Of a stretch of 64,000 bases of DNA, positions 19,030 through 53,560 are shown piece by piece. The translations under genes were made by a program, and so were the position numbers. The stretch lies in assembly GCA_047288015.1 (NCBI GenBank), contig CM103826.1:3917510-3981509 (forward strand), written 5' to 3'. The DNA comes from Mactra antiquata. Taxonomy: Eukaryota. Below the pieces are notes generated by a model. That model was not told where the DNA came from, ran no database searches, and was given only the letters and a program-made list of their open reading frames with translations. Numbering within the stretch: position 1 is the first letter of the stretch; the number at the start of each line of letters is the position of its first letter.

Positions 19030-19271
19030 GTTTCTGCTACAGAACAGAACATAGACATAAACTACATCTATGAACTAGAGATTGAATAGTCTTTCTGTTA
19101 CAGAACATAGACATAAACTCTATCTATGGGCTAGAGATTTCATACTCTTTATGTTACAGAACATAGACACAAACTCTATCTATGGGCTAGATATTTAATA
19201 CTCTTTATGTTACAGAACATAGACACAAACTCTATCTATGGGCTAGATATTTAATACTCTTTATGTTACAG
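19030..19271. repeat. 56-bp minisatellite in about 4 units, each carrying the ttacag|aacatagac acceptor of exon O.
   Basis: Acceptor g at 19159, 19215 and 19271 (period 56), plus a degenerate earlier unit. Confidence 0.9.
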
Positions 19272-31243: not shown

Positions 31244-31355
31244 ATGAAGTTATCACACATTGTGTCGACCATTGTCTGCTGGTTTGTGACAGTGTCAGCA
31301 CAAAATGCTGAGTTCAGTTTGTTACAACCCCAAGGATTGAAATTTTCACTGCCAG
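31244..31355 (+). CDS. Gene 2 (CBM39-like + GH16 beta-1,3-glucanase) exon 1: start codon and signal peptide.
   Basis: ATG at 31244 is preceded by an in-frame TAG two codons upstream. Translation MKLSHIVSTIVCWFVTVSAQNAEFSLLQPQGLKFSLP(G) has a hydrophobic core and an AQ-type cleavage site. Donor ccag|gtaaat; phase 1 out. Confidence 0.8.
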
Positions 31356-31749
31356 GTAAATTAACATTTATACATGTATTAAAGTATTCTTCTTCGAAAA
31401 TGATAGTGTTGCATTAGTTACAGTTCATGGTCCGAGCTTATAAAACATGAGAACGAATTCCATGCTCAAAACTCAGTTTTGTGACCAAGCTTCATTCTTT
31501 AATGACATAAAACTATGGACTTATTCACTTATTCATCGCAGTTTAGAAAAGTAATGGGACTCTGCTTCCAAATATTATTAGGCTTTCTTGCATTGATCCG
31601 TTATTTACAATTAATTCTCTTGAGAATGAAACTGAATTTTGGGCAGGGAGTTCGTTCTCAAGTTTTACAACCTCGGATCCGGTTGTTGTTTTTTCTCACA
31701 TTTGTACTGAAATCATAGAAAAAAGACCATAGCTACCTACTGAATGTAA

Positions 31750-32012
31750 ACGCAGTCCGTAGTGCGTCTGTCTTTGAATACAGGGGTCGTAGGTTCGATT
31801 CCCGTACGAGACCTTCATACACTCTTACAGTTTGGTCATGAAATACTTTTTACGGCAATTCTCCATCCTACCGCTGTATGGTGTATAGCAGTTAAAAGTT
31901 CCGGTTAAAAGCTTAGGTTTAGGGATCTAAGCATCTCCATTGGTAGCGAATATGTCGACTGACCGCCGCAATATGACTGAAAAATTGTCGCAAAGTGGCG
32001 TAAAGCACCATG
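31750..32012 (+). mobile_element. SINE family C copy in gene 2 intron 1.
   Basis: Core and family C tail present; head partly truncated. Confidence 0.8.
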
Positions 32013-32091
32013 ATATATTTAATTTACCAAATATTGATTGAATATAAATATGTATAATTATATTTATTTCAATTTCTCTCATATATTCCAG

Positions 32092-32193
32092 ATCAGTCTG
32101 GTATATCTTTGGTTGGATTACATTATAACATAAATCAACCAATGAATGGCCTAGAACATGGACAAGTTGGTGTTGATATCAATACTAAAACTG
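32092..32193 (+). CDS. Gene 2 exon 2: CBM39-like module part 1.
   Basis: Acceptor attccag|atcag and donor ctg|gtaagt. Translation DQSGISLVGLHYNINQPMNGLEHGQVGVDINTKTG. Paralog of gene 1 exon A. Confidence 0.85.
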
Positions 32194-32639
32194 GTAAGTT
32201 TATATGAACTACAGCATATTTTATTTGCTTTCAATATTATTGTTTAGCACACGGGCGATATGGTTAATTATATTACCAATGCACCGTTGCTATTGATAGA
32301 ATTGTATTAAACTAAACCAAATATCTGTTGGCCCCAGTGCATTCACAATTTTTCAACAATAAATTTAACATATCCTTCCGCACCCTATTTGAATAGCTAA
32401 TAAATGTTCGCTCAATTATTAGTCATTCGCCACTTTAGAATAATTTGTTAACTAATGGTTGCACTAAACTTGTTTTTGAGCTAAGCTATAGGCAAATAAA
32501 TTAAGCTGTTTGTGTTTTCAATGGAACTATTTTAGGCGATATCAGGAAGAGAAGTAAGAGAAAAAAAACAACATTCAAAATTTCACGTACCAGATCCGAA
32601 ACAATACCTACGACTGATGAGTCAGTCTAGCTAAACTAA

Positions 32640-32800
32640 GCTCTTCCCATGTCCATAACACATACCTCGTCTTCTTCGTTGAATACAGTCCCCAGGGCTG
32701 TTCGTAGTACCTTTTGAATTTTTAATGCAAAGTTCTCTTTTGCGTGGGACAGACACAACTCAAAACTTGACTTTTGATTTTTATCCACAATCATCGTTTA
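32640..32800. repeat. Dispersed repeat with a second copy at 42095..42255 (..gttgaatacagtc...ttgaatgcaaagtt.tc.tttgc.tgggacaga.aca..tcaaaacttg..).
   Basis: About 150 bp with about 80% identity between the two loci. Confidence 0.65.
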
Positions 32801-33374
32801 GGCGATGACAAATATCTCGTTTTAGTCTATAAATTTTAACAACACGACTCACTGAGCTCGCTAAACATTGTTCAGACATTCATATAGCATCAAAATATTA
32901 TTATGCTAAGCCCTGTGTGTTTACGACAAGAACTAATTAGTGTAAATTGTTGTGTGCTTCGCCAGTGTTTTGCCTCGCGTATGTAGCAAAAACCCATGAA
33001 ACTTGGTGGACCTCCTACGAATCCTTGCGGATTTATTCGTCGTATGAATTGGTCGAAGTGTTCTAAATGGCTTCATAATTATCAGACTGATTCTTTATTT
33101 GCTTGCGTTTATCGGCACGCCAACACAAAAAGGTCATGTCGCTATCAGACTGATCAGCTTATAGAAAATCTTTTACACATGGTCATGGATTATACAGAGT
33201 CCCATTCTCGGAACTCGGAGGTTATTAAAACATAGTTGATCTTGTTAGAATCAAGTATTTTCTAAGTGAACCTCTGACTTGTCTTGTGAGAATGACGTCC
33301 TTGACGTGGTTCATTATTTTCGTCTCTAATGTTCATAATAAACTTATTATTTATTATTATATTGATTGTTTCAG

Positions 33375-33509
33375 GAAATGCATGGGTACATGAGAAAACT
33401 AATGTCGCTGTAAAACCAGGTGATACCGTATACTTTTGGTATCTTGTTGTTAAGAATGGAATAGGAAGTCTGGTAAAAGATCAAACATGGACGCCTCCTG
33501 GAAGTACCG
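33375..33509 (+). CDS. Gene 2 exon 3: CBM39-like module part 2.
   Basis: Acceptor tgtttcag|gaaatg and donor taccg|gtcagt. Translation GNAWVHEKTNVAVKPGDTVYFWYLVVKNGIGSLVKDQTWTPPGSTG. It resembles the insect betaGRP N-domain (CBM39) motif [28 protein letters not shown]. Confidence 0.85.
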
Positions 33510-33967
33510 GTCAGTTGTTGTCATATATTTTACTATCTCAGCTTGAAATAATTACGACAAATTACACGAGTACTAAATTTATTCAATTATAACAAGCTTT
33601 TGCGAGAAAAATATTAGGTCAATTTTATATACCCTTCCATGAAAACTCGACAATAGTGTCGATTTTCCTCCATTAATAAGGTATATGGAGCAGTAGGCTA
33701 GGCTAGGATTTCGAATCTATTGTCCCGAAGGGATTGCTGATTCGATTGAAAATGTTTTGTTGCTTCTGGAGATGTACTGTCACGATATGACTTAATTAAT
33801 GTTAATTAAAACATCCACGTGGCACTTAATAGACTATAATGTCAGTTTACATAGGGCTCAATTTTTCAGCTAACGCAATATTAACCTTTTTGTTAGCTGT
33901 GGAATTAAGTGGTATATAAAACTTATAAGAATTATTTTAATGAAATATTTTTCACTGTTCGTAGGTA

Positions 33968-34196
33968 TGGTCCGCTGACGCTAAAGTGGCCGATTGTAAT
34001 GACCAATACTCTGTCGTTATCATTGATAGGGAAAGTTGTTAAATCATATTCCATGACTAGTTTTATTTTAAGTTTAGCTATATAAGATATGGTCGAGTGA
34101 CTATAATCACGTGATTTATTTTTAATACGTGTTTCCTTATTGAGTATCTGATTATAAACAAAGTCCAACTTATCGTCTTTGTACTATATTAGAGTA
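33968..34196. mobile_element. MITE (GTCTACAGACGATAAAGTGAC family) copy in gene 2 intron 3.
   Basis: Ends tggtccgctgacgctaaagtggccg ... caacttatcgtctttgtactat. Confidence 0.6.
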
Positions 34197-34305
34197 TTAC
34201 AATAAATCGCCAATATTCTAAAGGAACAGGCTACAGAAAGATTTACACATACAAGAAGTAAATTCGGGTGTTTATAAACGATTTATGTTTCTATGGTAAC
34301 TATAG

Positions 34306-34493
34306 GTCCAATAACAACATCAACAAAAGGTCCAACGGCAACAACAAAAACTGAAGGCCCCACCCAACCACCACAAACCACGTCTAGACCAACATCAAAT
34401 CCGTCTAACTACCCTCGTTTGATATTTGAAGACAATTTTGACACCTTGAACCTTGATGTATGGGAACATGAGATTACTGCCGGTGGTGGAGGA
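34306..34493 (+). CDS. Gene 2 exon 4: Thr/Pro linker plus start of the GH16 domain.
   Basis: Acceptor ctatag|gtcc and donor ggagga|gtaagt. Translation GPITTSTKGPTATTKTEGPTQPPQTTSRPTSNPSNYPRLIFEDNFDTLNLDVWEHEITAGGGG. Phase 1 in, phase 0 out. Confidence 0.85.
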
Positions 34494-34821
34494 GTAAGTT
34501 AATTATATATTTACTCTGTAAATTTGTTTTATACTTAGTCGATAGCGCAGCCGACTGTCTTCTTCTTCTATGGTAATGGCTATCAGTCATTACTGACTAC
34601 ATTATGACCATGCGTGGGGTGTTAGTAAAAGTGAGCTACCAGACCCCCTCAGCTACTAAATCCATCAAGGGGATACTGGTAGTGTGATAAAATAGGAGCA
34701 AAACCTAAACTTCTTAACAACCTTAAAATGCCCTTAAGTCTACAAATACACTACTAAGTGCAGAGAGAGAGAGAGAGGTTGGCAATTGTTAAAATCAGGA
34801 TAAAAAGAGTGTGTTCTATTT

Positions 34822-35078
34822 AGGGCTGCATCAATACGGGGGCGTCGGTTTGATTCTCGGAATAGCCTAAATTGTTTCGTGGATTTTGGTTACCAACTGC
34901 TTTCTACGACTATTCTTCATCCTACTTCTGTATCAAATAGGGCAGTTGTCAGTCGCTGGCTTAGTACTGGTTAGATGCTTAGGACTAGAAATCTAAGCAT
35001 CTCCAGCGATTGTGACTAGGTCGACTGACCGCCGCAATGTGACTGAAAAATTGTCGGCAGAGCAGCATAAAGCATCGC
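34822..35078 (+). mobile_element. SINE family C copy in gene 2 intron 4.
   Basis: Head gggctgcatcaatacgggggcgtcggtttgattctcgg, core and family C tail. Confidence 0.75.
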
Positions 35079-35160
35079 ATTCTCGGAACCCAGAGGTTAT
35101 CAAGACATAGTTAGATCGACTATGTCTTGATAACCTCTGGGTTCCGAGAATGAAAGCATC
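35078..35160. mobile_element. Small palindromic MITE (31-bp perfect inverted repeat ttctcggaacccagaggttatcaagacatag / ctatgtcttgataacctctgggttccgagaa). Other copies at 22836..22890, 33196..33295 and 35696..35762.
   Basis: Perfect hairpin-forming inverted repeat with an 11-bp spacer; dispersed copies. Confidence 0.7.
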
Positions 35161-35260
35161 GTAAACCAACCGTAACTCAAACCGTTTTAAAAACCGTTTA
35201 TAGCTTATACACATTTCTTCAATATATATCTCTGGACATGATAGTTTTATCTTTTTTCAG

Positions 35261-35335
35261 AACTGGGAATTCCAGTATTACACTAACAATCGTAGTAACA
35301 GCTATGTTCGTGATGGAAAATTATTTATTAAACCA
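35261..35335 (+). CDS. Gene 2 exon 5 (GH16).
   Basis: Acceptor cttttttcag|aactgg and donor aaacca|gtaagt. Translation NWEFQYYTNNRSNSYVRDGKLFIKP, a classic GH16 laminarinase N-terminal motif. Confidence 0.85.
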
Positions 35336-35799
35336 GTAAGTATATTTCTTATGTAACATATTTTATTATGATAGTTAAAACTGACTATAATGGTAATATT
35401 CATTCAATTTCAATGAAAAGGTGTTGTTTAGCGAGCAATTGTCCAATATGAGTGCTGGTGATTCCATACGCACTGAACTGTCCTGCACGTTACCCAAGGG
35501 TTCTTGTCGTCTACCATTTACTCTGTGACTAATCATGCATATCATTCGAGATTGCTCTACTTAAAAACGCATTTCTACAAATTTCCTGTCAACCTGTCAC
35601 AAAATGCATTTCCTGCCACTGCATGTAGGACACTTTTGCTAACAAAGCAAGCACGCATGTGTGGTTGTAAAAAAAAGACCCTGCTATTATCTTTATCACC
35701 ATTCTCATAACCCAGAGGTTATCCAAATAAGAATTGTGATAGTCTCTAGGTGCGAGAATGATTTTCACAGACAAAATTCTGTCTAAAGCCGCTGTTGCC

Positions 35800-36045
35800 T
35801 GAGTCATAAATACTAAATCCCGTGTGTCCACGGTCCAATGATAAGTACGACGGTCTTCTAATCTGGCGATCCGAGTTCGATTACCGGCCGTGGCAGGTCG
35901 TACCCTTTCGTGAAAATTCGACAATAATGTTGATTTTCCTGAGTATATGGTGTAATGTCGACTCCTTGTGGAATGGTGAGCGAGAACTGGTACAGAAAGT
36001 AGTCAAGGAAAACATATTGATTGGGTGAGTCGGTCGCTGTTAGAA
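35800..36045 (+). mobile_element. SINE family B copy in gene 2 intron 5.
   Basis: Head ..cgagttcgattaccggccgtggcaggtcgtaccctttcgtgaaaattcgacaataatgttgattttcc plus body. Confidence 0.75.
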
Positions 36046-36157
36046 AATGAAAAATAAAAGTTGATAAATGGCGTAATATCCAAATAAATTTAATTTGATT
36101 TAACAAATATACTTAAGTTTACAAAAAGATATTGAACTTTCAAATATTTTCTTTCAG

Positions 36158-36224
36158 ACATTTACGGTGGATACGCTGAATCGTGGACCTGATGGTTTAA
36201 CACAAGGGTCTTTAGATTTATGGG
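36158..36224 (+). CDS. Gene 2 exon 6 (GH16).
   Basis: Acceptor ctttcag|acatt and donor tatggg|gtacgt. Translation TFTVDTLNRGPDGLTQGSLDLW(G). Phase 0 in, phase 1 out. Confidence 0.7.
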
Positions 36225-36239
36225 GTACGTAGGAATAAA

Positions 36240-36570
36240 GTTTAATTTGCCACGAAAATGCCGTGATATTATTTAGTAAATTAGTAATGATGAGTTATTA
36301 CTAGTTAATTAGGAATTATGTATTATTTTTAGTCAATTAGTAATCGTGTATTATTTTTTGTTAATTAGTAATTATTTTAATTAATTAGTAATCGTGTATT
36401 ATTTTTTGTTAATTAGTAATTATTTTAATTAATTAGTAATCGTGTATTATTTTTTGTTAATTAGTATAATCATTTATCATTTCTAGTTAATTAGTAATTA
36501 TGTATTATTTTTAATTAATTAGTAGTCATGTATTATTTTAGTTGATTAGTGATTATGTATCATTTATTGT
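36240..36570. repeat. AT-rich tandem repeat (ttaattagtaatcgtgtattattttttg plus ttaattagtaattatttta) in gene 2 intron 6.
   Basis: About 49-bp compound unit repeated about 6 times. Confidence 0.85.
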
Positions 36571-36577
36571 TTTGAAG

Positions 36578-36760
36578 GTTCCTTGCCAGGCGATGTGTGC
36601 ACTGGAAATGGTTGGTGGGGATGTCGACGTGATGGTTCTCCAAATAATATCCTCAATCCTATACAGTCTGCTAGATTAAGAAGTTCCCGTGGTTTTAATT
36701 TCAAATATGGTAAAGTGGAAGTAAGGGCAAAAATGCCAAAAGGAGATTGGATATGGCCTG
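36578..36760 (+). CDS. Gene 2 exon 7 (GH16).
   Basis: Acceptor ttttgaag|gttcc and donor gcctg|gtatgt. Translation GSLPGDVCTGNGWWGCRRDGSPNNILNPIQSARLRSSRGFNFKYGKVEVRAKMPKGDWIWP. Confidence 0.85.
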
Positions 36761-36917
36761 GTATGTTTATTAAATATTTATTGTTAATGAATGTCAAGTA
36801 CTAGTATATGATAATTATTATTATATAATAATTATAGAGTTCTAAACTTTTACTTGATATGTTTATAAAATTACAATGTAAACCGATTGGGTTCACTGAA
36901 ATCAAATTAATTAAAAG

Positions 36918-37315
36918 CTGCGGTCGTGACCGAGTGAAAAGAGCGCTCGACTACGGATCATAAGGCCCCATGTTCGAACCCCAGTCGTGGCAGGTTATAC
37001 CCTTCCATTAAACTTTGACTAATAATTGTCTATTATCCTCCTCTATATCCTCCTTTTCCTCCTTTGTCGAATTTTTATAGAAGGGTATTACCAGCCCGGG
37101 TGGGACTCGAACCAGACCCCCGTCGCAGCAGACCAAACTCTTCCATGAAAATCTAATATTTAATATAGATTTTACTCAGCAGAGGGAGAAGTTTTCGGCT
37201 CCTTGTGGAAGGGTAAGCAAGTACTGGTTAAAGAAAAGTGTCCAGGAAATCCGGTTAGGTTAGTCGGCCGCCGTACATAACCTTAACATGTGTTGATAAA
37301 CGTCGTTAAATCAAA
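36918..37315 (+). mobile_element. SINE family B copy with duplicated head in gene 2 intron 7.
   Basis: Two tRNA-like heads followed by the family B body ..ccttgtggaagggtaagcaagtactggttaaag..gttaggttagtcggccgccgtacataacc. Confidence 0.7.
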
Positions 37316-37396
37316 TTTTAAAAAATAAGTTTATTTGGCATCTACTCTGGCAATAAGAATTCCCGTATTAACATGTGGCATGTTTTAAAAAAGACA

Positions 37397-37675
37397 CCTG
37401 CCTGGCTAGCTCAGTCGTTGCGCGCAAATCTACTGATCGAGGGGTCATGGGTTCGATCCCCAGGTGGGGCATACTTTCGTGGAGCTTGGTCATGAAATTA
37501 TTTCTACAGCCATTCTCCCTCCTACCACTGATTCTAAATCATGTAGGGCAGTTGTCAGTCACTGACGGACGTATGCGCTTAGTAACTGGTTAACAGCTAA
37601 TCCAGAAATTTAGCCTTTCCAGGAACGGTGAGTAGGTTGACTGACCTATACAATGTGTTACTACGGCGTTAAACC
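37397..37675 (+). mobile_element. SINE family A copy in gene 2 intron 7, ending about 75 bp before the catalytic exon 8.
   Basis: Head cctgcctggctagctcagtcgttgcgcgcaaatctactgatcgaggggtcatgggttcgatcccc plus core and tail. Confidence 0.85.
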
Positions 37676-37750
37676 CAAAACAAAACACAAAAATTATAAA
37701 AAAGACAATTGCCTTTGTGACACTGATGCTACTTAGTATTGTTTCTTCAG

Positions 37751-37828
37751 CTATTTGGATGTTACCACTAAGAAATGCTTATGGAAAATGGCCAGCATCA
37801 GGAGAGATCGATATTGTTGAAGTCAGAG
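37751..37828 (+). CDS. Gene 2 exon 8: GH16 catalytic exon (ExDxxE).
   Basis: Acceptor gtttcttcag|ctatt and donor cagag|gtaggt. Translation AIWMLPLRNAYGKWPASGEIDIVEVRG. E-I-D-I-V-E is the GH16 nucleophile / acid-base motif and is intact. Confidence 0.9.
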
Positions 37829-38484
37829 GTAGGTACATGCAGTTGTTGAAATTTGTTATACATTTGTAACTCATTTTGTTTGCTTTACTTACCTATTTAA
37901 ATATACGAAGGGAGGTAATACAGCGTCCAGTAGTACTACTACTTAGTTAACTTCCTTACACCAGGACGCGTGCAAATAAACCTTTAGAATGGGTTTCATG
38001 CTTAATACGCAGTTTCGTTCTAAATAGATTTCCTTTTAAACTATTGCAAATTGATTTATTGTTTTCCACTATCAAAAAGGTACTGTTCGAGGACGACAGT
38101 AAGTTTTAAATTTGAGCATAGAATCAGTTCTCAACTGTTATATAACCTCAGATCCAGGATATCATGTACAAGTACTTATTTCATACTCATTGATTGTTTT
38201 ACAAGTTTGTTAAAAAGAACTTAAACATTTACCATCCACGAAGTCTACTCAGTACAAACATATACCCGCCTTCCTTGAAATGAGACCTTAACAATACTAT
38301 ATACCTTATATATATATAAGTTCATCCATTGTAAGACATTGAATCACGTATGTCAGTTGGTATTAATGGACTTCGAAAGCTTTGTATATACATCTATAAG
38401 CCAACGTATTGCCTTCATCAAGATTCTATTCTTAACATTAATTCAAATACATATATATCAAATTGTCTTTTACATTCTAAATAG

Positions 38485-38602
38485 GTAACGCCAATTATCG
38501 TAATACAAATGGTCATTCAAAGGGTATAGACAATGCTGGCAGTACTTTACATTTTGGATCAGACTTCTGGCATAATAAATTTTACAAAGCTCATGGTGAT
38601 AA
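38485..38602 (+). CDS. Gene 2 exon 9 (GH16).
   Basis: Acceptor taaatag|gtaacg and donor gtgataa|gtaagt. Translation GNANYRNTNGHSKGIDNAGSTLHFGSDFWHNKFYKAHGDK. Phase 1 in, phase 2 out. Confidence 0.8.
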
Positions 38603-39386
38603 GTAAGTTTTTGTCTTTAAGAAATTCATTTGTACATATCGAAAGTTGGGAATGGAATTTTGATGTAAAAAGAAACTAATCAACCCATGTCAATGAAAAT
38701 TATGAATACAATTTGTATAATAATGCAGTTCGTTTCATTGGAAGACCAAAGAAAAATGACTTGTTCCTGATTCAAGGGATTTGGCAAATTGAAAATGCTC
38801 TATGTTCATTACTACTAGGGTGTCAGAAACGCAACTGGGTCAAAATGTTCCCTGGGCAATCGTCTTTCAAAAATATCAATTTTTTGGACCCAAATCTCGA
38901 CTTCCATGGTTGGAGCAGAGAAAAATGAGCTGAGAAAACCACAAGTTTTTGCACTTTGCAACCTCGAATTGCATTTCAGACGGCTGAGGGTTCTTGAAAT
39001 GATGCCTAAAGTGCTAGTGGTTTTCACTTAGTTTTTAGAGCCTCAAAGCATGCTAAATTATCACCATTTCGCGCCATTTGCCTGCACCTAACAACTTAGC
39101 AATCAGGGACGCTCTACTCCCTTCATACCAAAAGCACAGCGGAAGACACATACACCTTCCCTCTGGGACTCCTGAGGTTATCGTTTCGTGGAGTGGCCCT
39201 TGAAAAAATGTCAACTTTTTATAAACAACTTTCCATAAGGTTCACAATTTATAAAATCTGTGAATGAATCTATCTACCATAGGCTTTTTATAAATCTGAG
39301 CAATACCACTTTCTCTTCTGTTTTTGTTATTTTCATGCATGATCAATAAATATGCTATCAATGTGCTGTTAATATGTATTTTTTAG

Positions 39387-39458
39387 AATGGCTGACCAAG
39401 GCACTTATGCTGATGGTTTTCATATCTTTGAACTGATTTGGGATGAAAATCACATTAG
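39387..39458 (+). CDS. Gene 2 exon 10 (GH16).
   Basis: Acceptor attttttag|aatgg and donor cacattag|gtaagt. Translation (K)MADQGTYADGFHIFELIWDENHI. Phase 2 in and out. Confidence 0.8.
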
Positions 39459-40583
39459 GTAAGTTAGGCTTACAATTCAAATCAAAATGGTAACAGTTTG
39501 ATGCAGAAAGTATGAATTGTCAGTGATAGTGTGCAATACCATTTTGTGTTTTGAACATTAGACAGATTATGAAACATCTTTCTTAATTAAGAAAAGAGCC
39601 ACATTGTTTGAATACAAACGATATATTCAAATTGCAAAGACAATATATTATATGTACATGTATGTACAATAATTCTACTTAAGGATAAAATTACTATCCG
39701 TGTGAAGAGCTTAGCAATGCTAAAGTTTTTTGTCATCATATGCACTAAACTAAAATAACAGAGGGCGGCACTCCATACATGTGTGGCTGACCTTCGTTTT
39801 GTCCTGAGTTGATGATAGTGTCTCCACTCAATAGTATTGCCTTTCCAGATCCTGTCCGTCTTGTCTCACATTAGACCAAATATCTTTAGATTGTATCTGT
39901 GTATCTCTCTACATGTATTTACTTAAGGACATCTACTGGTCTTACATAGGGTTTACAGGTCCCTATCCTGGTCTTGGTTTTGATTGTCAGTTGAGTTGTG
40001 GAAGCACTGGCTTCCAAAGGGCTTTCACCAGCACGCGTCATGGACTCTATAGCAAAGGGCTTTTTTCTCACCATGTCGTTTATGGAAATTGTTGTTGCAG
40101 CTTCTGTAACCGTCATTTTTAAAGTATCGGGTTGTTAGCCCAATACAAACTTTGACCCAACCTGGAGGACCAGTGATCGAGTCTGGTCTCGACCCATTGA
40201 CTTGTCTGGCTAGGGTGGCCCTACCAGGAGATGAATCTCCCGCAAGCATAGCTCTCAGGGTCGTTAAGACACACGAGCCCCCCCCCTCCACCATTACGCC
40301 AAGGTTGCACTCGTAGGACAGATTTATAGCAGGTCTACTCCATGAAGATGAACGACATTAGCCAGCACTTTTCAAATATAATCATCTCTGTATGGAAGTG
40401 CTGTAAAAATATGTTGGCATTAGGTAAATCATCCGTGTACCAACATGGTTTAAATGTGTTAACTAAATTTTATATCACCCTTATATCACTGTTATGGAAC
40501 AGGCTTTGATAATATAAACACAATACTAACAAAAATGGACTATAGTTAGCTCTGCTTAATTTTCTGGTATTCTACTGTTTCAG

Positions 40584-40716
40584 TGCATCAATTGATGGTA
40601 CAAGAGTAATGAATGTTGAACCAAGACAAACAATGTGGGAATTTGGTGGATTGGATAAGGATAACGTAGATAATCCATGGGTTGGTGGAAATAAAATGGC
40701 TCCTTTTGATCAAGAG
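40584..40716 (+). CDS. Gene 2 exon 11 (GH16).
   Basis: Acceptor tactgtttcag|tgcatc and donor caagag|gttagt. Translation SASIDGTRVMNVEPRQTMWEFGGLDKDNVDNPWVGGNKMAPFDQE. Confidence 0.8.
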
Positions 40717-40920
40717 GTTAGTACAACAGTCTGAGGGGCACCAATGTGGTTTACATACACACTTTGAACATATCAGGTCAAAATTTTCTGCGACTGCGGT
40801 GCAGTGGTTAGCATACTCAATTCCCAACCATAAAATTTGCAACTATTAGGATGACCAGCTTATTCTATCCTTGTAAAACACTTGAGTGCATCAGATAGCA
40901 CAAAAGTGTTTTGGTTTTTA

Positions 40921-41049
40921 TGAAGCTTTACCGCTCTTCTGAAAATAAAATCAGTCATATTGCAATGGTCAGTCAACCTACTCACTGTTTTTGTAGAGGC
41001 TTAGATCTCTAGACCTAAGCTTTAACCAGTAGTAGGCACCTACCTTCAC
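40921..41049 (-). mobile_element. SINE family C tail fragment (minus) in the last intron of gene 2.
   Basis: Tail-only match. Confidence 0.6.
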
Positions 41050-41134
41050 CAATAACTGACAACATTTCTATTGTAAAATAAAACTTTCGTCCAATCAAAA
41101 GCATTATAATTAATGTATCCAATTTTTGTTTCAG

Positions 41135-41359
41135 TTTTTCTTTATACTGAATGTAGCAGTTGGGGGAACCGGAGGGTACTTCCCAGATCATTATCAGAGT
41201 AATCCACCTAAACCATGGAGCGATCAATCTGGCACTGCTGCACGTGATTTCTGGAACGCACGAGGACAATGGTACCCAACATGGAACCCTGATAAGAACA
41301 ATGGAGAAGATGCTGCAATGCAAGTTGATTACATCAAAGTCTGGAAATTAAAACCATAG
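41135..41359 (+). CDS. Gene 2 exon 12: terminal exon with stop TAG at 41357..41359.
   Basis: Acceptor ttgtttcag|ttttt. Translation FFFILNVAVGGTGGYFPDHYQSNPPKPWSDQSGTAARDFWNARGQWYPTWNPDKNNGEDAAMQVDYIKVWKLKP* is the GH16 C-terminal consensus. Confidence 0.9.
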   Translation, partial: FFFILNVAVGGTGGYFPDHYQSNPPKPWSDQSGTAARDFWNARGQWYPTWNPDKNNGEDAAMQVDYIKVWKLKP

Positions 41360-42780: not shown

Positions 42781-44166
42781 CTATCAAGATATATATAATT
42801 ACACTGCTCTAGTAAATCGATATAGTCAGAGATTTAGCTTTATAAACATAATTTTGTTTGTCATTTGAAATTACAAATATTTTGTTTTTATTTTCACTAT
42901 TCATTTTGTCTAATCAAACTTGGTTTCGTAGATGTTCAGGATGAAAAAAGTATTTAAAAAAATGAAAAATATTTTAACTAGAATATATTCTACCTAATGC
43001 CAAAACAAAAGACTAAAATTAACAAGTAAACATTATTTCTGCAAGTACACGATGCTGAAAGAGTATTATTTAAAATAATTCTTTGCGCAAAAAATTAAAG
43101 ACATTTTGAAGGTATACATGCAAAAAGCCAAAGGAAAACATTATTGGAAAAAAAATAGAAAATATCATTATAGGAAGAGGAAAAGCATCAATCATATTTG
43201 CATCAAATGACAAACATTATCATGCATTTTTTTTTTACTTTCCATACTTTCCACTCCACATAAATATATTGTTATTAAATCAACAGAGATCCTATGTAGT
43301 TATACTTCTTAGGGCAGTATTTGATATAATTTGCCTCTATGTCTCTACATAGTACACGGCCACCCAAAAGTTCCTTCATAGTACAATTAACTTATGTTCA
43401 TTATATATTATAATTATTATCTACGCAATGACAACAGAATATCATGGATATAATTATTCATTAATAAGTTGCAGCAATAATTATCTGTCAGATTCTAAAG
43501 CCATGATCAATGTTTCTTAATGCTACAACCTAGATTTTAAAGATCAAATTCCTCCAAAATTTTCATTTTTTTGTAACTAAATTTATTTGATAGAGTTTTA
43601 TTAGCTGAGAAAAATGGTGCAATTTTTATCCACATCAGATATCAAACAATGAAGTTATGGAAGATTTTGTGTCACAAAAATGAATATTCATGATGACATC
43701 GATGATGTCATCGATGATCTTATTAATATGCATAACTGATTTTTCTACTACCACATGCATTTAAAACATATTTTCTTGTTGGTTTTCAACAGTAATCATT
43801 TTCAGCTTCATATTCAAACAGAATGTTACTTAATTTTTTAGCATATATGCATTTTGCAAGTGTTCTAAAATTTTATTAAATAAGTGGGCATGTCCTTATT
43901 TCCTTATATGGAAAACACTTAAATTGGTTATATGTTGGTTATTCATTGTCCGATTTTCATTCTGTTTTCTTTAAAGTGAATGTCTCAAAAATTCCTTTTA
44001 AACACAATTGACTCCCAAATCAGTGAATTTGACCTTTAAGTTATTTTTGAAATCTCATATCTTAAGGAAAATCTACTGATTTCCGAAGTAAAACATGGAA
44101 GCGTTTTAACATAAACTGAAATTACATCTTTCACTGAGTTTTGTGAGTCTTTTTCTTTTGGTGGTT

Positions 44167-44290
44167 GGAAGGAGAATGGCTGTAGAAATTGTTACATGAC
44201 CAAGCTCCACGAAAGTATGCCCCGCCCAGGAATTGAACCTACTACCCCTTGATCAGTAGACTTGTGCGTTACTGAGCTAGCTAGGCGAGC
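44167..44290 (-). mobile_element. SINE family A fragment (head plus core, minus).
   Basis: Reverse complement of the head and core: ..catgaccaagctccacgaaagtatgccccgcccaggaattgaacc... Confidence 0.75.
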
Positions 44291-46999: not shown

Positions 47000-47206
47000 T
47001 TAACAATTCAAACTCTTCATTTCCTCAGCATTATCAGAGTTAACTCCTCCCTCCATCTTCTCGTCCACAGATTTGTCTTCTATATCTTCAATACTCTCAG
47101 GTAATTTACGGTGGAGTGTTTCAGGTAAGATCAAAGTTAGGAATCCACCAATCAAAGTCACAATACCAAACAATATCAATGGTAAAGACTTACTTCCATA
47201 CTGATC
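47000..47206 (-). CDS. SLC22-family transporter exon 8: terminal exon with TAA stop.
   Basis: Minus-strand acceptor atactttcag|gatcag. Translation DQYGSKSLPLILFGIVTLIGGFLTLILPETLHRKLPESIEDIEDKSVDEKMEGGVNSDNAEEMKSLNC*. LPET..K.LPE.IED is the SLC22 C-terminal consensus. Confidence 0.9.
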   Translation of the reverse strand, partial: DQYGSKSLPLILFGIVTLIGGFLTLILPETLHRKLPESIEDIEDKSVDEKMEGGVNSDNAEEMKSLNC

Positions 47207-48377
47207 CTGAAAGTATGATACATGAGGGCTGTTACAAATATTTAATGATACACAAGGGTTGTCACAAAATTTAATAACTTTTCTATGGATTATAAGCCTT
47301 GCATATGTTAACTTTTTCAATTGTATACTGCAGACAAAAACATAGGGAGACTAATTAGACTAATGTATTTATTGTTACCTGTTTAAAACTAATACTTTAA
47401 TTAAGATTATTAGAAACACTGGGTTATGGCTATTTAGTAACTATTGCTTTCATTCTAATAGAACTACTTTGGAACTCCAATTCATTGTTTTTCCATCTGT
47501 GCACAGGCGGTACAAACAAAGTTTTTCCAAACATTATTGCTAAAAAGCACGAAACACAGATTAAATCCTATTGTTCTTTTTACAAATATTTTCATTGTAA
47601 CAATGAAAGTTGGTTTGTACCGCTGGGAAAAAAAACAAAATTTAAATCCGGATATAGTCTATTATAACTTCAAGTGTATACATTTATATCTGATGATATA
47701 TTACTTGCCAAAATAATTATTTGCTTGATGATAAGCAGGGCTTCTTTTCCATATATTAAAGGGTCCATTTACAGGCCCTTTTCCCTTCTGAAATTTCTTT
47801 AAAATTATGCAGTTTTCCCCAATTTGGAGTATATCTTGGAATTTCTCATTCCCCTATCAATGAAATTGTGACAAAAATGTCCCAAATGTTCTATATAAAA
47901 TAAGGCCCAAGGCCCCTTCTACAAATACTAAAAAAGCCCTGATAAGAAGCATTCTAAAAGCTTTAACCCAAATTAATAAAAATCTAATACAAACCATGTA
48001 CTCCGAACACAAAAGCTAAGCATTAGTAATTCTAACGGAACAGATATTTATTTCGATACCATGACCAAGGGTGTGTATTTCTCAAAGAGAAAGAATTTTA
48101 CAAAATTTCTGTATGCAATGGTCAAGGATGTAAGTGAGACCAATAACGTTTTATATATATTGAATTCATATGACGTACATGTAATTCGTCAGTTGTAGCT
48201 TCATACACTTTAATAAAACTTACATTACATGTAGCCAAAATCAAAGCAAAAAGTTAAAGAAAGGATATGACCTCCCACAAACGGTCTTTAAATCCTCATC
48301 ATCTGGTGAGTTCTATTTACCTCTAAGGCAAAGCCATGACAGGAAAAATATAACAACTGTAGCTAGGTTATACATAC

Positions 48378-48450
48378 CAGTATAATAATCTGTGGAGCTA
48401 TCACACCACCAACTCTAGTCCAGAATGCACAACTACCCATACCTATATTC
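48378..48450 (-). CDS. SLC22-family transporter exon 7.
   Basis: Minus-strand acceptor ttgtacag|gaatat and donor atactg|gtatgt. Translation (R)NIGMGSCAFWTRVGGVIAPQIIIL. Phase 2 in, phase 0 out. Confidence 0.75.
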
Positions 48451-49275
48451 CTGTACAATATATGTCATAATTGAATGAATTTGTAATATCTAGAAATGTC
48501 TACATGTATTTTAATGTCATAACTCGCTCGTAACATACATGATGATATTACTGTAATGCTCACATATAATGAACTAAGATATAACAAATTTCTGTTATTA
48601 CAAAGCAAAATCAATTTCCCCCAGCCAAGACATTACTTTATCTTTGTTGTATGGGGAAAAAACTCAGATAAAATGTTGCATAAGAAAAAGGGATTCCCTT
48701 GGAATAAGGCCTAAGGGTACTAAGCTTTATTCAAAACCATATAAAATATAATGAAACAATTGTTGGTTACATAATAGTCAATATCGTTACAAATGGTTGC
48801 AGTACACAGCTTGTTCAGTTAAAACTGGTTTGAGATGTATTATAACATTTTGAAATAGTTTCATCAACTGAGCAGACAAAGTACAGTAGGCATACCACTT
48901 CCAAAACTGTAAGCCAGTTGTAGTGTACCAGTTCAGCAAACAACTAGTTCAGAAAAAAAGTATCATAACATATTCATACATTTTGAAAGGGTTTCATTAA
49001 ATTAATGCACGGCTAATATGTTTCACAAAATTTCTCAAAATGAGACAGGTCTGGTGTTTAACTTTTAAGACATAATAAATTCAATGGCATCCAACTGTCA
49101 TTGGCCCAAGAATGATCTAGAGTTGCCATGGATTTCAGGTGCTTAGACCTTTGTTGTATTTTGTGATCACTTATCAATGCTACTATAAAGACTACTGCCC
49201 CAAAACTCCCACATTACCCCTGCAATAGAGGAGACAGGGGAAATAAACAAATAAACCCTATTATTCATATCTTAC

Positions 49276-49479
49276 CTTATAATGGTTGGGTAGAGCTCAG
49301 ATGTATACAAAAATATCACACTGAATAATCCTCCCATAGCAAACTTGCCACATATAGCCAATATACTTGATACATACACTGTATTTGAGGAAGAGTAGAC
49401 AAGGGGCATAACTCCTGCACTTATCATGAACAATGATGCCAACAGAAAATAGGTCAACAATGGTCGCTTTCTACCAAAT
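49276..49479 (-). CDS. SLC22-family transporter exon 6.
   Basis: Minus-strand acceptor atgacag|atttgg and donor ataag|gtaaga. Translation FGRKRPLLTYFLLASLFMISAGVMPLVYSSSNTVYVSSILAICGKFAMGGLFSVIFLYTSELYPTII(R). ELYPT is an SLC22/MFS motif. Confidence 0.9.
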
Positions 49480-49727
49480 CTGTCATAAGAAAAACAATCA
49501 CAATTTACATTTTCAATGTAAATTAAAGTTTGACCTCACATGAAACTAAAAAATCAAACATGAAATAATATCTAACAGACCATAGCCATGGCTAAGTAAA
49601 TGGCATACTGGACTTCCTGAAAATGGAAGGTGATATACTGTTTCTCGTAAATGAAACCAATGCTGATTTTTCTCTACATGGGAACAATTTACTAGTACCT
49701 CACAAAGGGTAAATTTGGTACTTTATG

Positions 49728-49995
49728 ATACTTTATGCCACTTCTCGACATTTTTCAGTCATTTTGCTGTGGTCAGTTGGCCAACTCACTGTTCCAGGAG
49801 AGGCTTAGATCTCTAGACCAAAGCTTTTAACCAGTATCAAGCACCTACCTTCACCAGTGGCTGTCAACTGCCTACTTGATACAGCAATAGGATAGTATTA
49901 CCTGACCAAGAAAGGTAGTTACTGATCAGGAATTGAACCCACAACCCCTTGATCTGTAGGCAAACAGACTACTGACCAAGCTAGTCAAGCAGACT
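49728..49995 (-). mobile_element. SINE family C copy (minus) in an SLC22 intron.
   Basis: Reverse complement of the family C tail, core and head. Confidence 0.8.
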
Positions 49996-50308
49996 CTCAC
50001 AAAAGGCAAGTTTGAACAAGTTAGAACATAGATCACGAAAGCCAAGTAGATGAAAGGTGACATATTATGCTTAAAAAACAGCATTAAACAACAGGGTACA
50101 TAAATACACAGTAAAATCTTTGCAGAGTGGCGCTCTGTAGAGGAATTACCTCCTTACAATAACAGTATTAATTCTTGCCAAAGTAAACATTTACAATTAA
50201 TTTAACCTCTCTAGAGCAGCACCTCTCATGAGCAACAAAAAGTCATTGTCTCTGGAAGAGTGTGGCTCTGCAGTGGTTACACTGTCTATATATGTATAAA
50301 AAACCTAC

Positions 50309-50443
50309 TTCTTAGTAATATAGATGACTAATGTATAAGCAACAAATTCTACAGCTCCAGCTATAAAAAAGTTCAGATATTTGTTTCCAGGTAAACTTGT
50401 CAGTCTCCAGGTGAGTCCATAGTAACCAACGGATATAGCAAAC
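50309..50443 (-). CDS. SLC22-family transporter exon 5.
   Basis: Minus-strand acceptor ctaaacag|gtttgc and donor aagaa|gtaggt. Translation WFAISVGYYGLTWRLTSLPGNKYLNFFIAGAVEFVAYTLVIYITK(K). Confidence 0.85.
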
Positions 50444-51072
50444 CTGTTTAGAGAAAATAAAACAAAATTAAAGACATAGCAAATTTTTCGCAATATATAA
50501 TTCAAAAACAGTTGACAAAATTGGCAGGTTTCACTTTGCCAGACCAACCTTTTTTCGTCTGGAAACTTTGTCAGTCCACAGTTTGGCCTGTACAAATCAC
50601 TTAGGAGGGTTAAAAATTCCTGTTTTATCAGTCCACATGGGCAATGAATTTAAAAATCATGATACACTTTTCTTTGCATTTCTTCTGTCAGATTCAATCA
50701 ATTTCAATATACTAGCTTATATTTATTACACATAGAAATTTCTTGTTCTCATAATGACCAGTGTCAACAAACGTCTTATTTCAACTACACAAATTAATGG
50801 GTCTGGTAAAACAGTCTGCAAGTTTAGAGTTTGAAAAAAGTCCTTATAGCTGCCTTTGCTTTATCTCTTTGTAATAGTTTGGTTGCCTTAGTAATTTTTT
50901 GATCGTCCAAACTGTAAAGTGGTTGTCTGGGACGGATTGTTTTGCAGACTGTAAAAAATTAATTTAATTGGTCCGAATGACATGTAAATGTTTATAGAAG
51001 ACTGTGTAAATTCGAGGAATCAGAATGACACAAGAAAAACGCAGGGCCTGAAATTAAAAAATCATACTATAC

Positions 51073-51303
51073 CACAGATAGAAAAGAACGATGCTTCTTT
51101 TCCTAAGTCTTGAAGTCTTCAATAAATCTAAGAAGGAGAATTGTTTGTTATTACTGTCCATGGTACCCAGTTGTTGTTTGAGATTCTCCCAAGTCTGTTG
51201 AGGAAATGTTACTTTGTTCCAGGATGACATTTTATATAACTGGTTCTCCGCTTCATCCACTTTGTTCTTCAAGATCAACCAACGTAGAGATTCTGGCATT
51301 ACA
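51073..51303 (-). CDS. SLC22-family transporter exon 4.
   Basis: Minus-strand acceptor aatacag|tgtaatg and donor ctgtg|gtatag. Translation CVMPESLRWLILKNKVDEAENQLYKMSSWNK...SRLRKRSIVLFYL(W). PESxRWL is an SLC22 hallmark. Confidence 0.9.
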
Positions 51304-51339
51304 CTGTATTAAAAAAAATGGATAAACACAATATTAATA

Positions 51340-51660
51340 TTATATTCCACTATGATGATTGACTGATTGAGTTTAACACTGAGTTAACACAAATTATGGT
51401 CATTTTACGGTGGCCAGTTCACCTAACCTAGCTTTCCTGGACTCTTGTCTATAACCAGTACTCACCTACCCTTCGACAAGGCCGACAACTTCTCTATAAA
51501 CCTTATTAATGCAGGTAAATTGACATTGTTGAATTTTCATGGAAGGGTATAACCAGCCTGGGTGGGGTTCAAACCATCGACCCTTTCGGGACACTAGATT
51601 GGAAATCCTGCAAGTACGCGAGCTGAGAATTTTAGATCAGATTGGACCAGCACCTGACAA
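51340..51660 (-). mobile_element. SINE family B copy (minus, full length) in SLC22 intron 3/4.
   Basis: Body is the reverse complement of family B; head ggtgctggtccaatctgatc...ggtttgaaccccacccaggctggttatacccttccatg. Confidence 0.8.
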
Positions 51661-51696
51661 AAACAATGTAACCCCCCCCCATAAATGTTAACCTAC

Positions 51697-51893
51697 CATA
51701 TATAGAAAGCAGCAAGAACACTAGGTACAGATATAACAAGCTGTAACAGTCTCCAGTTACGTATGAAGTAAGCCAGTAGTGGTATAGTCATAACACTAAG
51801 TCCCCAGAAACATTCTAAGATAGCACCAGCATAACTACGATGTTTAGGTAGAAATAGTTCCATAGCTAATGTGTATGTTGATGTCTGTAGACC
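51697..51893 (-). CDS. SLC22-family transporter exon 3.
   Basis: Minus-strand acceptor ttttgtag|ggtcta and donor tatatatg|gtaggt. Translation GLQTSTYTLAMELFLPKHRSYAGAILECFWGLSVMTIPLLAYFIRNWRLLQLVISVPSVLAAFYI. Phase 0 in, phase 2 out. Confidence 0.9.
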
Positions 51894-53329
51894 CTACAAA
51901 TATAAAACAATAGTGTCATTATATCAAATTATAATTAGCCATTTTTTAAAGCCACTCGCTCACAGATTTGGTAAAATTTTTTTGATATTTTAAAATTACC
52001 TGTCTTTAATAGTAATTGTGTTAAGAAAATGAATTCTTAATATTCTAAGACACACTGACCAATAGATTGTGAGTAATATAAGATAAATGTCACAAAAAAT
52101 GAAGATAAATGTCATAAAAAATGTCATAAATAATTTATACTGTTACTAACGGGGGTAGGTTTTTATGTATAAAATCAAAATATTTTACAGCTGTATGCCA
52201 ATTTGCACTAAAATATTCATTATCAGAACACTGCTTTTCTGTTTCCAAAATGTTTCTAAACAATTTTGAGAGTTTTAGAAAAGTTGATATTTAAGTTGAA
52301 ATCTGTGATTGAGTAGCTTTAATAAATATAATCACCTTAAGCCTAAACAAAAAAATGTTTTTTAACAACGATCAAAAAAATGCTGGTGGGGTAAGGATTG
52401 AGGTTATCAAATTTTGTTTTCAAATTTTTGGACAAATCAAAATAGTGATTCTAGTTTCCAAAGTTCAACATAATGTAAAAAAATAGATAAATCATAAAAC
52501 AGAACTCTAGGACCTTGTAGTTTGACACTTGCATTAAGAGCATTTATCTTTGAACAATACATGTATAATATTTACACTGTAGGTACTTTTTGTTTGAAAC
52601 TATATACAAAGCTAACTATTCAAAGTATTTGTCAATAAAACATATAGTAAAATGTACTTTAATATCATACATAATATATAAATAATATTCATGTGGCTTA
52701 CAGAGAATATTGGACAGTGACTAACAGTGTAGCCACTACAAATACAGTCATACAAATAATGAAGTACTAATTATTATGATTACACAGAACTTAACTTGCC
52801 TTCTTGATTGTTATTGTTGTATATTGTTTGTAAAGTTTCAGGGTTTAAAACCAGTTTCAACAATTTTATCATTTCAGACAGTTCACCTAGCCAGGATTTT
52901 GTAGAATTTCTAGAAAGGGTATAACCCATACTACTGAACTTTGAACCTAGTTAGCCAGATTAGATATCCAATGCACTAACCATAGTAACATTCAAATGAA
53001 AAAAGTAAATAAATTTGATAATACTGTGCAATGAACTTTAAAATTACAGAAAAATTAGCAATGTACATATTCATCGACTTCTTATGACGTCATTGTGATG
53101 TCATACAAAATATGACAAAATATACTCTTAAATGCTCATGATTTCGTTAATAATCATGCAAATAAAAAAAAATTCTTTCACTGCTATGTTTTTTTTTTGA
53201 TACACTATTATTTATGCTTAAGTTGTTTTTGTGACTGAATCTCCCCTTTAAATGTAAATACTCGTCAACATGTTCAACAAAGCAGAATAAATGGTACTAG
53301 TCTATAAATCTAAGAAACTATTTACAAAC

Positions 53330-53560
53330 CTGCATAAGAATGCCTTGTATGAATCTTAAGGCAACAAAACCAGAATACCATGGAACAAACGATGTTGCCA
53401 CACCAACGATGATAGGCATATACAGAGTGATCAACATTATTGGCTTACGCCCAAGCTTGTCGGCAAGGTGACCAAACACCACTCCGCCTACCATGACTCC
53501 ACAGAAATATATAGTTGTAGCAAGTGATGACAGATAGGCTTGACTACAGACTAGGTTCCA
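53330..53560 (-). CDS. SLC22-family transporter exon 2.
   Basis: Minus-strand acceptor ttttcag|tggaac and donor atgcag|gtttgt. Translation WNLVCSQAYLSSLATTIYFCGVMVGGVVFGHLADKLGRKPIMLITLYMPIIVGVATSFVPWYSGFVALRFIQGILMQ. EWDLVC-like and GRK motifs are typical of SLC22. Confidence 0.9.

Follow-up and report, generated by a model that had tools for sequence, protein, structure and literature searches.

Two kinds of GH16 protein are distinguished in insects. The GNBP/betaGRP proteins carry a conserved N-terminal domain of ~100 amino acids and their catalytic glutamates are absent, whereas the insect gut glucanases possess these glutamates and the N-terminal extension is absent (PMC4122206, PMC3981738, PMC6403176). 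The former function as non-enzymatic activators of proPO and Toll (PMC7915573, PMC3981738, PMC6403176). Representatives from Bombyx, Plodia and Drosophila (GNBP3) with solved structures (3aqx, 3aqy, 3ie4) consist of an N-terminal CBM39 followed by a domain of the GH16 fold, and this is also the arrangement of the clam protein analysed here.

In molluscs, 2-10 GH16 genes per genome have been reported; they were classed as laminarinases, are mostly expressed in the hepatopancreas, and CBMs are present in a third of them (PMC7560691). The biochemically well characterised members are CBM-less digestive laminarinases, namely Lcf of Chlamys farreri, LV of Mizuhopecten yessoensis, LIV of Spisula sachalinensis and the 37-kDa enzyme of Tapes literata, for which endo-1,3-beta-glucanase and transglycosylase activity was demonstrated (PMC7551256). 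These enzymes also belong to GH16 and share the EXDX(X)E motif (Glu150/Glu155 in Lcf), whose two glutamates are the nucleophile and the general acid/base; in Lcf, a heterologously expressed scallop enzyme, the residues Trp130, Trp134 and Trp145 bind the substrate (PMC7551256).

Proteins which combine CBM39 with a GH16 domain have also been described outside the arthropods. The oyster betaGBP-1 and the pearl-oyster LGBP contain a 'glucanase motif' and are regarded as proteins of immune recognition (PMC5877582). The sea urchin Strongylocentrotus purpuratus possesses a protein (LOC373274; P0143 / XP_030836379.1) with the same order of signal peptide, CBM39, linker and GH16 domain as the clam protein and with the strand GEIDLVE. 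It is named beta-1,3-glucanase and was followed as 'laminarinase' in larval gut cells (PMC12079659); it had been cloned by Bachman and McClay (1996, PNAS 93:6808), as cited in PMC1458353.

The gene analysed here lies on the forward strand of a stretch of 64,000 nucleotides from the bivalve Mactra antiquata (the window, which means this whole stretch), as do all features described below. For the region from 30.5 to 43 kb, open segments and GT/AG sites were combined into exons. The resulting gene (31244-41359) comprises 12 exons, all introns of which are of the GT…AG type, and forms a single open frame of 493 codons. Exon 1 (31244-31355) contains the start codon, a predicted signal peptide (MKLSHIVSTIVCWFVTVSAQ from position 31244) and the start of CBM39, and ends at the donor TGCCAG/gtaaat. 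Exon 2 (32092-32193) continues CBM39 (…DQSGISLVGLHYNINQPMNGLEHGQVGVDINTKT…), and its remainder is encoded by exon 3 (33375-33503). Exon 4 (34306-34493) encodes a Pro/Thr-rich linker, which is predicted to be disordered, and the first strands of GH16 (LIFEDNFDTLNLDVWEHEITAGGGG). All following exons belong to GH16: exon 5 (35261-35335; NWEFQYYTNNRSNSYVRDGKLFIKP), which holds the invariant N-W-E-F columns, exon 6 (36158-36224), exon 7 (36578-36760), exon 8 (37751-37828), exon 9 (38485-38602), with the conserved His in STLHFG, exon 10 (39387-39458), exon 11 (40584-40716) and exon 12 (41135-41359), which encodes the C-terminus (FFFILNVAVGG…VDYIKVWKLKP) and the stop codon. Exon 7 sits in an open frame at 36553-36801 and contains SARL (36667-36678) together with the conserved stretch of 20 residues that includes W282 and W284.

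The 493-aa product is 100% identical to KAL4223162.1, a '3-glucan binding protein' of Mactra antiquata encoded on a chromosome-scale contig of 40.9 Mb, barring two differences between the gene models. In the GenBank model, an N-terminal Met-Lys stems from an upstream exon, and an alternative in-frame donor of exon 3, six bases further downstream (33509), adds Thr-Gly. Exon 8 is included in the deposited model. In a related species, a Logan contig that resembles a transcript (L001, SRR31116234, 1961 nt) contains an uninterrupted ORF of 582 codons with CBM39, GH16 and the E-D-E residues, the product of which is 75% identical to the clam protein. The introns of the gene are filled with interspersed repeats, one of which ends ~100 nt upstream of exon 8; a tRNA scan for typing these repeats found none.

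The 78-nt segment at 37751-37828 is the exon in which the catalytic motif was noticed. It is bordered by canonical AG/GT splice sites (...tttcttcAG before and GTaggt after), with a pyrimidine-rich acceptor (…gtattgtttcttcAG) and a donor that agrees with the consensus. In the frame fixed by the adjoining exons it encodes (A)IWMLPLRNAYGKWPASGEIDIVEVR(G), the catalytic beta-strand AIWMLPLRNAYGKWPASGEIDIVEVRG being part of it, and the codons for E-I-D-I-V-E are located at 37804-37821. The exon is symmetric (phase 1/1), and its start in codon phase 1 is the sole reason for the stop that appears when 37751-37828 is translated in frame 1. Thus, the intact GEIDIVE named in the preliminary description is present when the segment is read in the frame set by its neighbours. 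The other motifs quoted there were also recovered, namely SARL and the 20-residue stretch in exon 7 and the N-terminal sequence from 31244, and the label 'exon 8' is correct, since this is the eighth of 12 exons with canonical borders in one open frame. In a six-frame translation of the whole window, a pattern of the ExDxxE type occurred only once, and it did not occur in any of 40 Markov-1 resamples, which shows that the motif is not a chance match.

The position of the motif in the GH16 domain was compared with solved laminarinases. In a phmmer search against PDB sequences, GEIDIVE was placed on the catalytic GEIDIME of the laminarinase 3AZX from Thermotoga maritima (E 4.5e-20), with …WPASGEIDIVEVRG… of the clam protein aligned to …WPTCGEIDIMEMLG… of 3AZX; the catalytic segment was also aligned with …WPKSGEIDIMEHVG… of the beta-1,3(4)-glucanase 7WWC. 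The three residues E304, D306 and E309 (E308, D310 and E313 in the numbering of KAL4223162.1) were invariant in an alignment of 69 homologues, which spans molluscs, annelids, a brachiopod, a nemertean, echinoderms, hemichordates, tunicates and a lamprey. An alignment that placed the motif away from the catalytic position had been named as a finding that would speak against an enzyme; the phmmer alignment to 3AZX and the invariance in the 69 sequences confirm the catalytic position. E304 is predicted to be the nucleophile and E309 the acid/base, with D306 between them. In the same alignment W282, W284, W288 and W299 were invariant. Of these, W284, W288 and W299 are located at -20, -16 and -5 from the nucleophile, which is the spacing of Trp130, Trp134 and Trp145 in Lcf and also that of the other CBM-less mollusc laminarinases; the equivalence of these residues to those of Lcf is based on spacing and on the family alignment rather than on a direct alignment to Lcf. 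A putative aromatic Trp platform, as expected in a GH16 laminarinase, is therefore found before the catalytic strand.

The order of the parts of the protein, as predicted from its sequence, is signal peptide, CBM39, Pro/Thr-rich linker and GH16. At the N-terminus, Lys2 is followed by a hydrophobic core (residues 6-17), and V-S-A/Q after residue 19 provides a -3/-1 site, so that by simple rules a typical secretory signal is predicted (residues 1-19, 31244-31300, likely cleavage VSA/QN). Pfam assigned CBM39 (PF15886) to residues 20-112 (E 1.7e-23; 82.8 bits, cut-off 25) and Glyco_hydro_16 (PF00722) to residues 255-392 (E 8.9e-14; 51.8 bits, cut-off 22). The assignment to CBM39 agrees with the similarity of this domain to solved betaGRP N-terminal domains (E 5e-17 to 3aqx and 2rqe, 2e-16 to 3ie4; 3aqy was aligned as well), and it corresponds to the N-terminal extension of ~100 amino acids by which the betaGRP/GNBP type is defined (PMC4122206). 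In the phmmer alignment, the Asp of 'VGVDI', encoded by exon 2, pairs with the Asp of 'WSRDI' in Bombyx, which corresponds to Asp49 if the offset inferred between chain index and residue number is applied. Asp49 of the Bombyx betaGRP N-terminal domain contacts the glucan (PMC7915573).

The AlphaFold2 model, which was built on 69 homologues, had a mean pLDDT of 88.4, with values >90 for both domains and >95 for the catalytic strand (residues 308-314 in this model). CBM39 was modelled with seven beta-strands (pLDDT ~90 or more). The linker (residues 113-150) is rich in Pro, Thr and Ser and predicted to be disordered, with pLDDT <50 for residues 124-148. In a Foldseek search, the best 32 matches in the PDB were GH16 glycosidases, and all but one were beta-glucanases or laminarinases; the target-normalised TM-scores were 0.72-0.81, with a lower value for one two-domain enzyme. 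Among them, the enzymes of Thermotoga, Rhodothermus, Cellulosimicrobium, Zobellia and Pyrococcus were found with E 4e-20 to 5e-18 and TM 0.73-0.81. Taken together, the Pfam score, the pLDDT and the Foldseek matches argue for a predicted GH16 beta-jelly-roll fold. The fold and the catalytic strand are common to the clam protein and the bacterial and archaeal laminarinases (Thermotoga 3AZX, Rhodothermus 3ILN, Zobellia LamA 4BOW, Pyrococcus 2VY0; TM 0.73-0.81), and the sequence E-values are ~1e-20 for Thermotoga and Rhodothermus and 1e-11 to 1e-14 for Pyrococcus and Zobellia. However, the identity to these enzymes is only 22-26%, they lack CBM39, and the metazoan GH16 domain exceeds theirs by ~100 residues and has additional loops and a helical extension at its C-terminus. 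The CBM-less mollusc laminarinases likewise differ by the lack of CBM39, and with a mature mass of ~37-39 kDa they match about the GH16 part of the clam protein alone (39.5 kDa).

These observations point to a secreted, catalytically competent endo-1,3-beta-glucanase which is targeted to beta-1,3-glucan by its CBM39, and we consider this reading probable. The preliminary description had proposed an active, secreted and glucan-binding laminarinase rather than a receptor. Its first part is well founded as a prediction; the sequence does not justify the exclusion of a receptor, because mollusc proteins studied as pattern-recognition proteins keep the motif.

The closest named relatives of the clam protein are the betaGRP of Tapes (72% identity) and the LGBP of Meretrix (71%). 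Together with two further bivalve proteins named betaGRP, LGBP or betaGBP they share its architecture (Tapes literatus AEE89455.1, Meretrix meretrix AGT42010.1, Crassostrea gigas BAG82629.1, Pinctada fucata ACN76701.1). All four have an intact G-E-I-D-x-x-E, are 59-72% identical to the clam protein and group with it in one neighbour-joining clade of heterodont and pteriomorph bivalve sequences. The strand is GEIDVVESR in betaGBP-1 of C. gigas and GEIDIIESR in the LGBP of P. fucata. The four proteins differ in their length of 550-585 aa, their long Ser/Thr-rich linkers and a Cys-rich segment, the cysteines of which are missing in the clam protein. The sea-urchin protein LOC373274 aligns with 99% of the clam protein at 48% identity; it originates from a deuterostome and has a longer linker with a Cys cluster (CSMYPCDAACD…) that the clam protein lacks. 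The sea-urchin enzyme of Bachman and McClay (1996) was reportedly purified from eggs.

The names of these relatives suggest another interpretation, according to which the clam protein is mainly a humoral pattern-recognition protein of the LGBP/betaGBP type. Binding of beta-1,3-glucan, and perhaps of LPS, would involve CBM39 together with the cleft of GH16 and would set off agglutination or prophenoloxidase-like responses. The catalytic residues would contribute to this binding or to a minor 'effector' glucanase activity, which has been reported for termite GNBPs. The clam protein shows the combination by which mollusc LGBP/betaGBP proteins are recognised (CBM39 and GH16 with 'glucanase motif'), is itself deposited as 'glucan binding protein', and has kept the Asp which contacts the glucan in Bombyx betaGRP (PMC7915573). 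The betaGBP-1 of C. gigas and the LGBP of P. fucata, with equal architecture and intact motif, are treated as immune recognition proteins (PMC5877582). In termites, GH16 glucanase activity was confirmed, and blocking of one such protein raised fungal infection (PMC3981738). Most receptor names in this group are, however, transfers by homology and not the result of assays, and no glucanase assay of the bivalve betaGRP/LGBP/betaGBP proteins was found in the literature. Judged by sequence, the name LGBP/betaGBP and the enzyme label describe one and the same mollusc protein family.

The insects, in which a pure receptor role is established, provide a second argument against this interpretation. 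To gather the insect betaGRP/GNBP set, a fused Blattella model was used as query, restricted to its receptor-like N-terminal half. None of the 118 betaGRP/GNBP proteins obtained keeps both catalytic glutamates; 102 have lost both and 16 have retained one. The catalytic strand is typically replaced by GQIRIAMAR or GLMRVAFAR, and WPAIW by xPEIW. The only sequence with both glutamates (1 of 119) is a CBM-less glucanase of Hermetia. Blattella P0220 itself had appeared as an arthropod protein with CBM39 and active GH16, but turned out to be a fused model of two tandem genes, the first encoding an inactive betaGRP and the second an active CBM-less glucanase. Among the relatives of the clam gene, in contrast, E-D-E occupies the three catalytic columns in 118 of 119 sequences, and only a truncated model from Mya deviates. 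With an 83-aa query (exons 7-8), the homologues retrieved were only short fragments (<150 aa), which were uninformative on architecture.

The preliminary description had contrasted the motif with the arthropod receptors. This contrast is real, as the numbers above demonstrate, yet the framing was misplaced, as the source is a bivalve mollusc. Among the closest non-arthropod homologues that carry CBM39 in addition to GH16, 60 of 61 keep the motif, a count that takes in two homologues with Cys in motif position 5, and in these sequences an intact motif is the norm. Retention of the motif in the clam is therefore expected and no exception. As both glutamates are present, the clam protein should not be filed as a non-catalytic receptor of the arthropod betaGRP/GNBP type. 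In a neighbour-joining tree of the GH16 domains, it is located among those of heterodont bivalves (Tapes, Meretrix, Dreissena, Mya); E-D-E proteins with and without CBM are interspersed roughly by taxon, and the insect receptors form a separate, long-branched group. Purifying selection on catalysis would be expected to produce the strict invariance of E/D/E and of the Trp platform that is seen across phyla. We therefore regard a mainly recognising protein as unlikely. The intact motif makes catalysis likely by prediction and is still compatible with a role in recognition.

The genomic neighbour of the gene appears to be another glucanase, which likewise speaks against a mere recognition function. 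Directly upstream on the same strand, exons encoding CBM39 are located at 819-935 and about 1877-2180 (Pfam E 3.4e-16). This gene runs on into GH81 and not GH16, as tblastn revealed no GH16 exons in it. A GH81-N-like piece is located at 3080-3334, the GH81 motif YNDHHFHLGY at 18444-18473, and Glyco_hydro81C was assigned to 19247-19531 (Pfam E 3e-12) and 20505-20855 (E 2e-10). Pfam gave no match for the upstream ORF pieces at 3080-3334, 4527-5180, 6582-6878, 11474-11848 and 13863-14336, which are probably N-terminal or linker exons of GH81 that are too short to score. At the DNA level, the CBM39 exons of one gene match those of the other with 95% identity over 119 nt and 85% over 166 nt. The part of CBM39 encoded by exon 2 is 85% identical in amino acids to that of the neighbour, compared to 59% or less to any other species, and for the part encoded by exon 3 the values are 70% to the neighbour and 72% to Meretrix. 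The upstream gene thus appears to encode a glucanase of the CBM39-GH81 type whose CBM39 module was duplicated recently, and the pattern of identities indicates that the module was copied, at least partly recently, between two families of beta-1,3-glucanases in this genome. The occurrence of a nearly identical CBM39 beside GH81 argues that CBM39 is an enzyme-targeting module in this genome. The GH16 gene had been termed a 'paralog' in the preliminary description. A second GH16 gene in the window was ruled out, since a tblastn search with 120 homologues detected no other GH16 exons in the 64 kb; the paralogy is limited to the CBM39 module.

The clam protein deviates from its homologues in the region between the two domains. 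It has 493 aa, compared to 550-585 in other bivalves, and its linker is unusually short. Furthermore, a pair of cysteines at the boundary of linker and GH16, which is kept in most homologues, is missing (consensus C..YPC-LIFEDNF, clam SNPSNYPR-LIFEDNF). The whole boundary segment is encoded by one exon, so that the loss of the cysteines is not due to a missed exon. It is also unlikely to affect catalysis, because the CBM-less laminarinases start at about this point. The lost cysteines, the short linker and introns full of interspersed repeats, one of them close to exon 8, would fit a decaying or unexpressed duplicate, in which the intact motif is a relic. We consider this highly improbable. 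All 12 exons are open and have canonical splice sites, the model is confidently folded, and the transcript-like contig of the related species shows the same uninterrupted architecture. Moreover, 126 columns reach a conservation of 90% or more among the other 68 sequences, and the clam protein keeps 121 of them (96%); in a ranking that starts with the least conserved sequence, it takes place 26 of 69. Neither relaxed constraint nor decay is apparent.

The symmetric phase of exon 8 offers a further possibility, as skipping of this exon keeps the frame open (…KGDWIWPGNANYRN…). By regulated skipping, one gene could give rise to an active CBM39-GH16 glucanase and to a catalytically dead, glucan-binding isoform. 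Loss of the exon would remove a core beta-strand and would probably cause unfolding of the domain, and it is very doubtful that such an isoform is formed. If it were, exon skipping would represent a splicing route to the split between enzyme and receptor, for which the arthropods used gene duplication and loss of residues. A less far-reaching idea, likewise doubtful, is that the 37-39-kDa laminarinases purified from bivalve styles derive by proteolytic processing from CBM39-bearing precursors like the clam protein.

For the probable function as a secreted endo-1,3-beta-glucanase, the following mechanism can be proposed. The N-terminal CBM39 would bind beta-1,3-glucan and, via the flexible Pro/Thr linker, would be joined to the GH16 beta-jelly-roll, a putative retaining endo-1,3-beta-glucanase (laminarinase), in which E304 would be the nucleophile and E309 the general acid/base, assisted by D306. 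By means of its CBM39, the enzyme would be enriched on glucan that is insoluble or triple-helical, for example algal laminarin, chrysolaminarin, or the walls of fungi or yeasts. Filter-feeding clams eat algae rich in laminarin and chrysolaminarin, and for this reason the protein most probably serves to digest beta-1,3-glucan from the food, either in the digestive gland or in the crystalline style. A second role in immunity, by releasing or clearing microbial glucan, would be possible. For the clam protein, the structure of the gene, the domains and the residues aligned at the catalytic positions are established by the sequence data, the fold is predicted, and secretion, enzymatic activity, substrate and tissue are inferred.

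The sequence had already been deposited, and proteins of this kind have been known since 1996, so that the clam protein is a further, uncharacterised member of its family; the finding is correct but ordinary, and a specialist would find none of it surprising. To our knowledge, no CBM39-bearing laminarinase of a mollusc has been characterised biochemically to date. Marine mollusc laminarinases are of practical interest because of their transglycosylation activity (PMC7551256). For annotation, it is of importance that this gene and many other mollusc genes were named 'glucan binding protein' by transfer from arthropod receptors, while such sequences predict working laminarinases with a glucan-targeting module. 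With its N-terminal glucan-binding domain and predicted active GH16 domain, the clam gene illustrates the presumed ancestral state. According to the model of Bragatto (2010), as summarised in PMC4122206 and PMC6403176, the arthropod receptors originated from this ancestral form through loss of the catalytic residues, and the arthropod gut glucanases through loss of the N-terminal domain.

The gene upstream of the CBM39-GH16 gene appears to encode an endo-1,3-beta-glucanase of the CBM39-GH81 type, with the CBM39 and GH81 exons probably joined in one transcript, as judged from the sequence. Pieces with similarity to CBM39 or GH81 were located on the plus strand at positions 819-935, 1877-2180, 3080-3334, 18333-18536, 19247-19531 and 20505-20855, and exon 1 of this gene falls outside the window, on its 5' side. 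The CBM39 exons were recognized by Pfam (E 3.4e-16), and the linker consists of a Thr/Pro-rich repeat. On the 3' side of the CBM39 exons, the motif YNDHHFHLGY of the GH81 type was detected (18444-18473), and Glyco_hydro81C gave two Pfam matches in this gene (E 3e-12 and 2e-10).

The CBM39 exons of both genes are similar at the DNA level. Positions 823-941 of the GH81 gene share 95% identity with positions 32083-32201 of the GH16 gene, and positions 1852-2016 share 85% identity with positions 33342-33507, whereas the intron sequences of the two genes are mostly unalignable. At the protein level, the part of CBM39 encoded by exon 2 showed 85% identity to the neighboring gene in comparison to at most 59% to the CBM39 of any other species. 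For the part encoded by exon 3 this excess towards the neighbor was absent (70% to the neighbor in comparison to 72% to Meretrix). These sequence comparisons suggest that exons were recently duplicated, or underwent gene conversion, between two neighboring genes which possess different catalytic domains.

The catalytic exon of the GH16 gene (exon 8, 37751-37828), which encodes the strand with the motif E-I-D-I-V-E, has a length of 78 nt and an identical phase at both ends. When this exon was skipped in silico, the reading frame was kept (…DWIWPGNANYRN…) and the entire catalytic strand was removed; such an isoform is hypothetical. Copies of an interspersed repeat (about 250 bp, 69-92% identical) are dispersed across the window on both strands. 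The copy in intron 7 (37397-37646) stops roughly 100 nt before the catalytic exon, and at least 11 other sites were found (e.g. 460-684, 10255-10495, 13206-13393, 17106-17358, 20068-20316 and 44161-44286). A scan of the window with ARAGORN gave no tRNA-like gene.

The clam protein lacks the cysteine pair which precedes LIFEDNF in most CBM39-GH16 homologues (exon 4 linker, 34306-34430); the respective positions are P151 and R156 in KAL4223162.1, the GenBank entry for this gene. Furthermore, the linkers of other bivalves are longer than that of the clam protein by 60-90 residues. In KAL4223162.1, the N-terminus is extended by two residues (MK-MKLSH…), via an upstream exon spliced at 31241, and the exon 3 donor is the one at 33509 (+Thr-Gly) instead of 33503; either donor keeps the reading frame and may be the one in use.

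On the minus strand, exons of a major-facilitator transporter are present at 47003-54381, and the best piece (53321-53590) matches the Pfam families MFS_1 (E 7e-10) and Sugar_tr (E 4e-8). Judged by eye, this transporter is SLC22-like, and it appears to be unrelated to the glucanase genes.

Outside the window, the deposited 756-aa protein P0220 of the cockroach Blattella germanica, retrieved in the homologue searches, represents two fused tandem genes. The first part is a CBM39 betaGRP, a glucan-recognition protein, with the dead site GKIQMAMAR, and the second part is a CBM-less GH16 protein with GEIDLVESK. As P0220 shows, copies of the receptor and of the enzyme lie side by side in the genome of B. 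germanica, and fused models of this kind can mislead architecture counts derived from databases.
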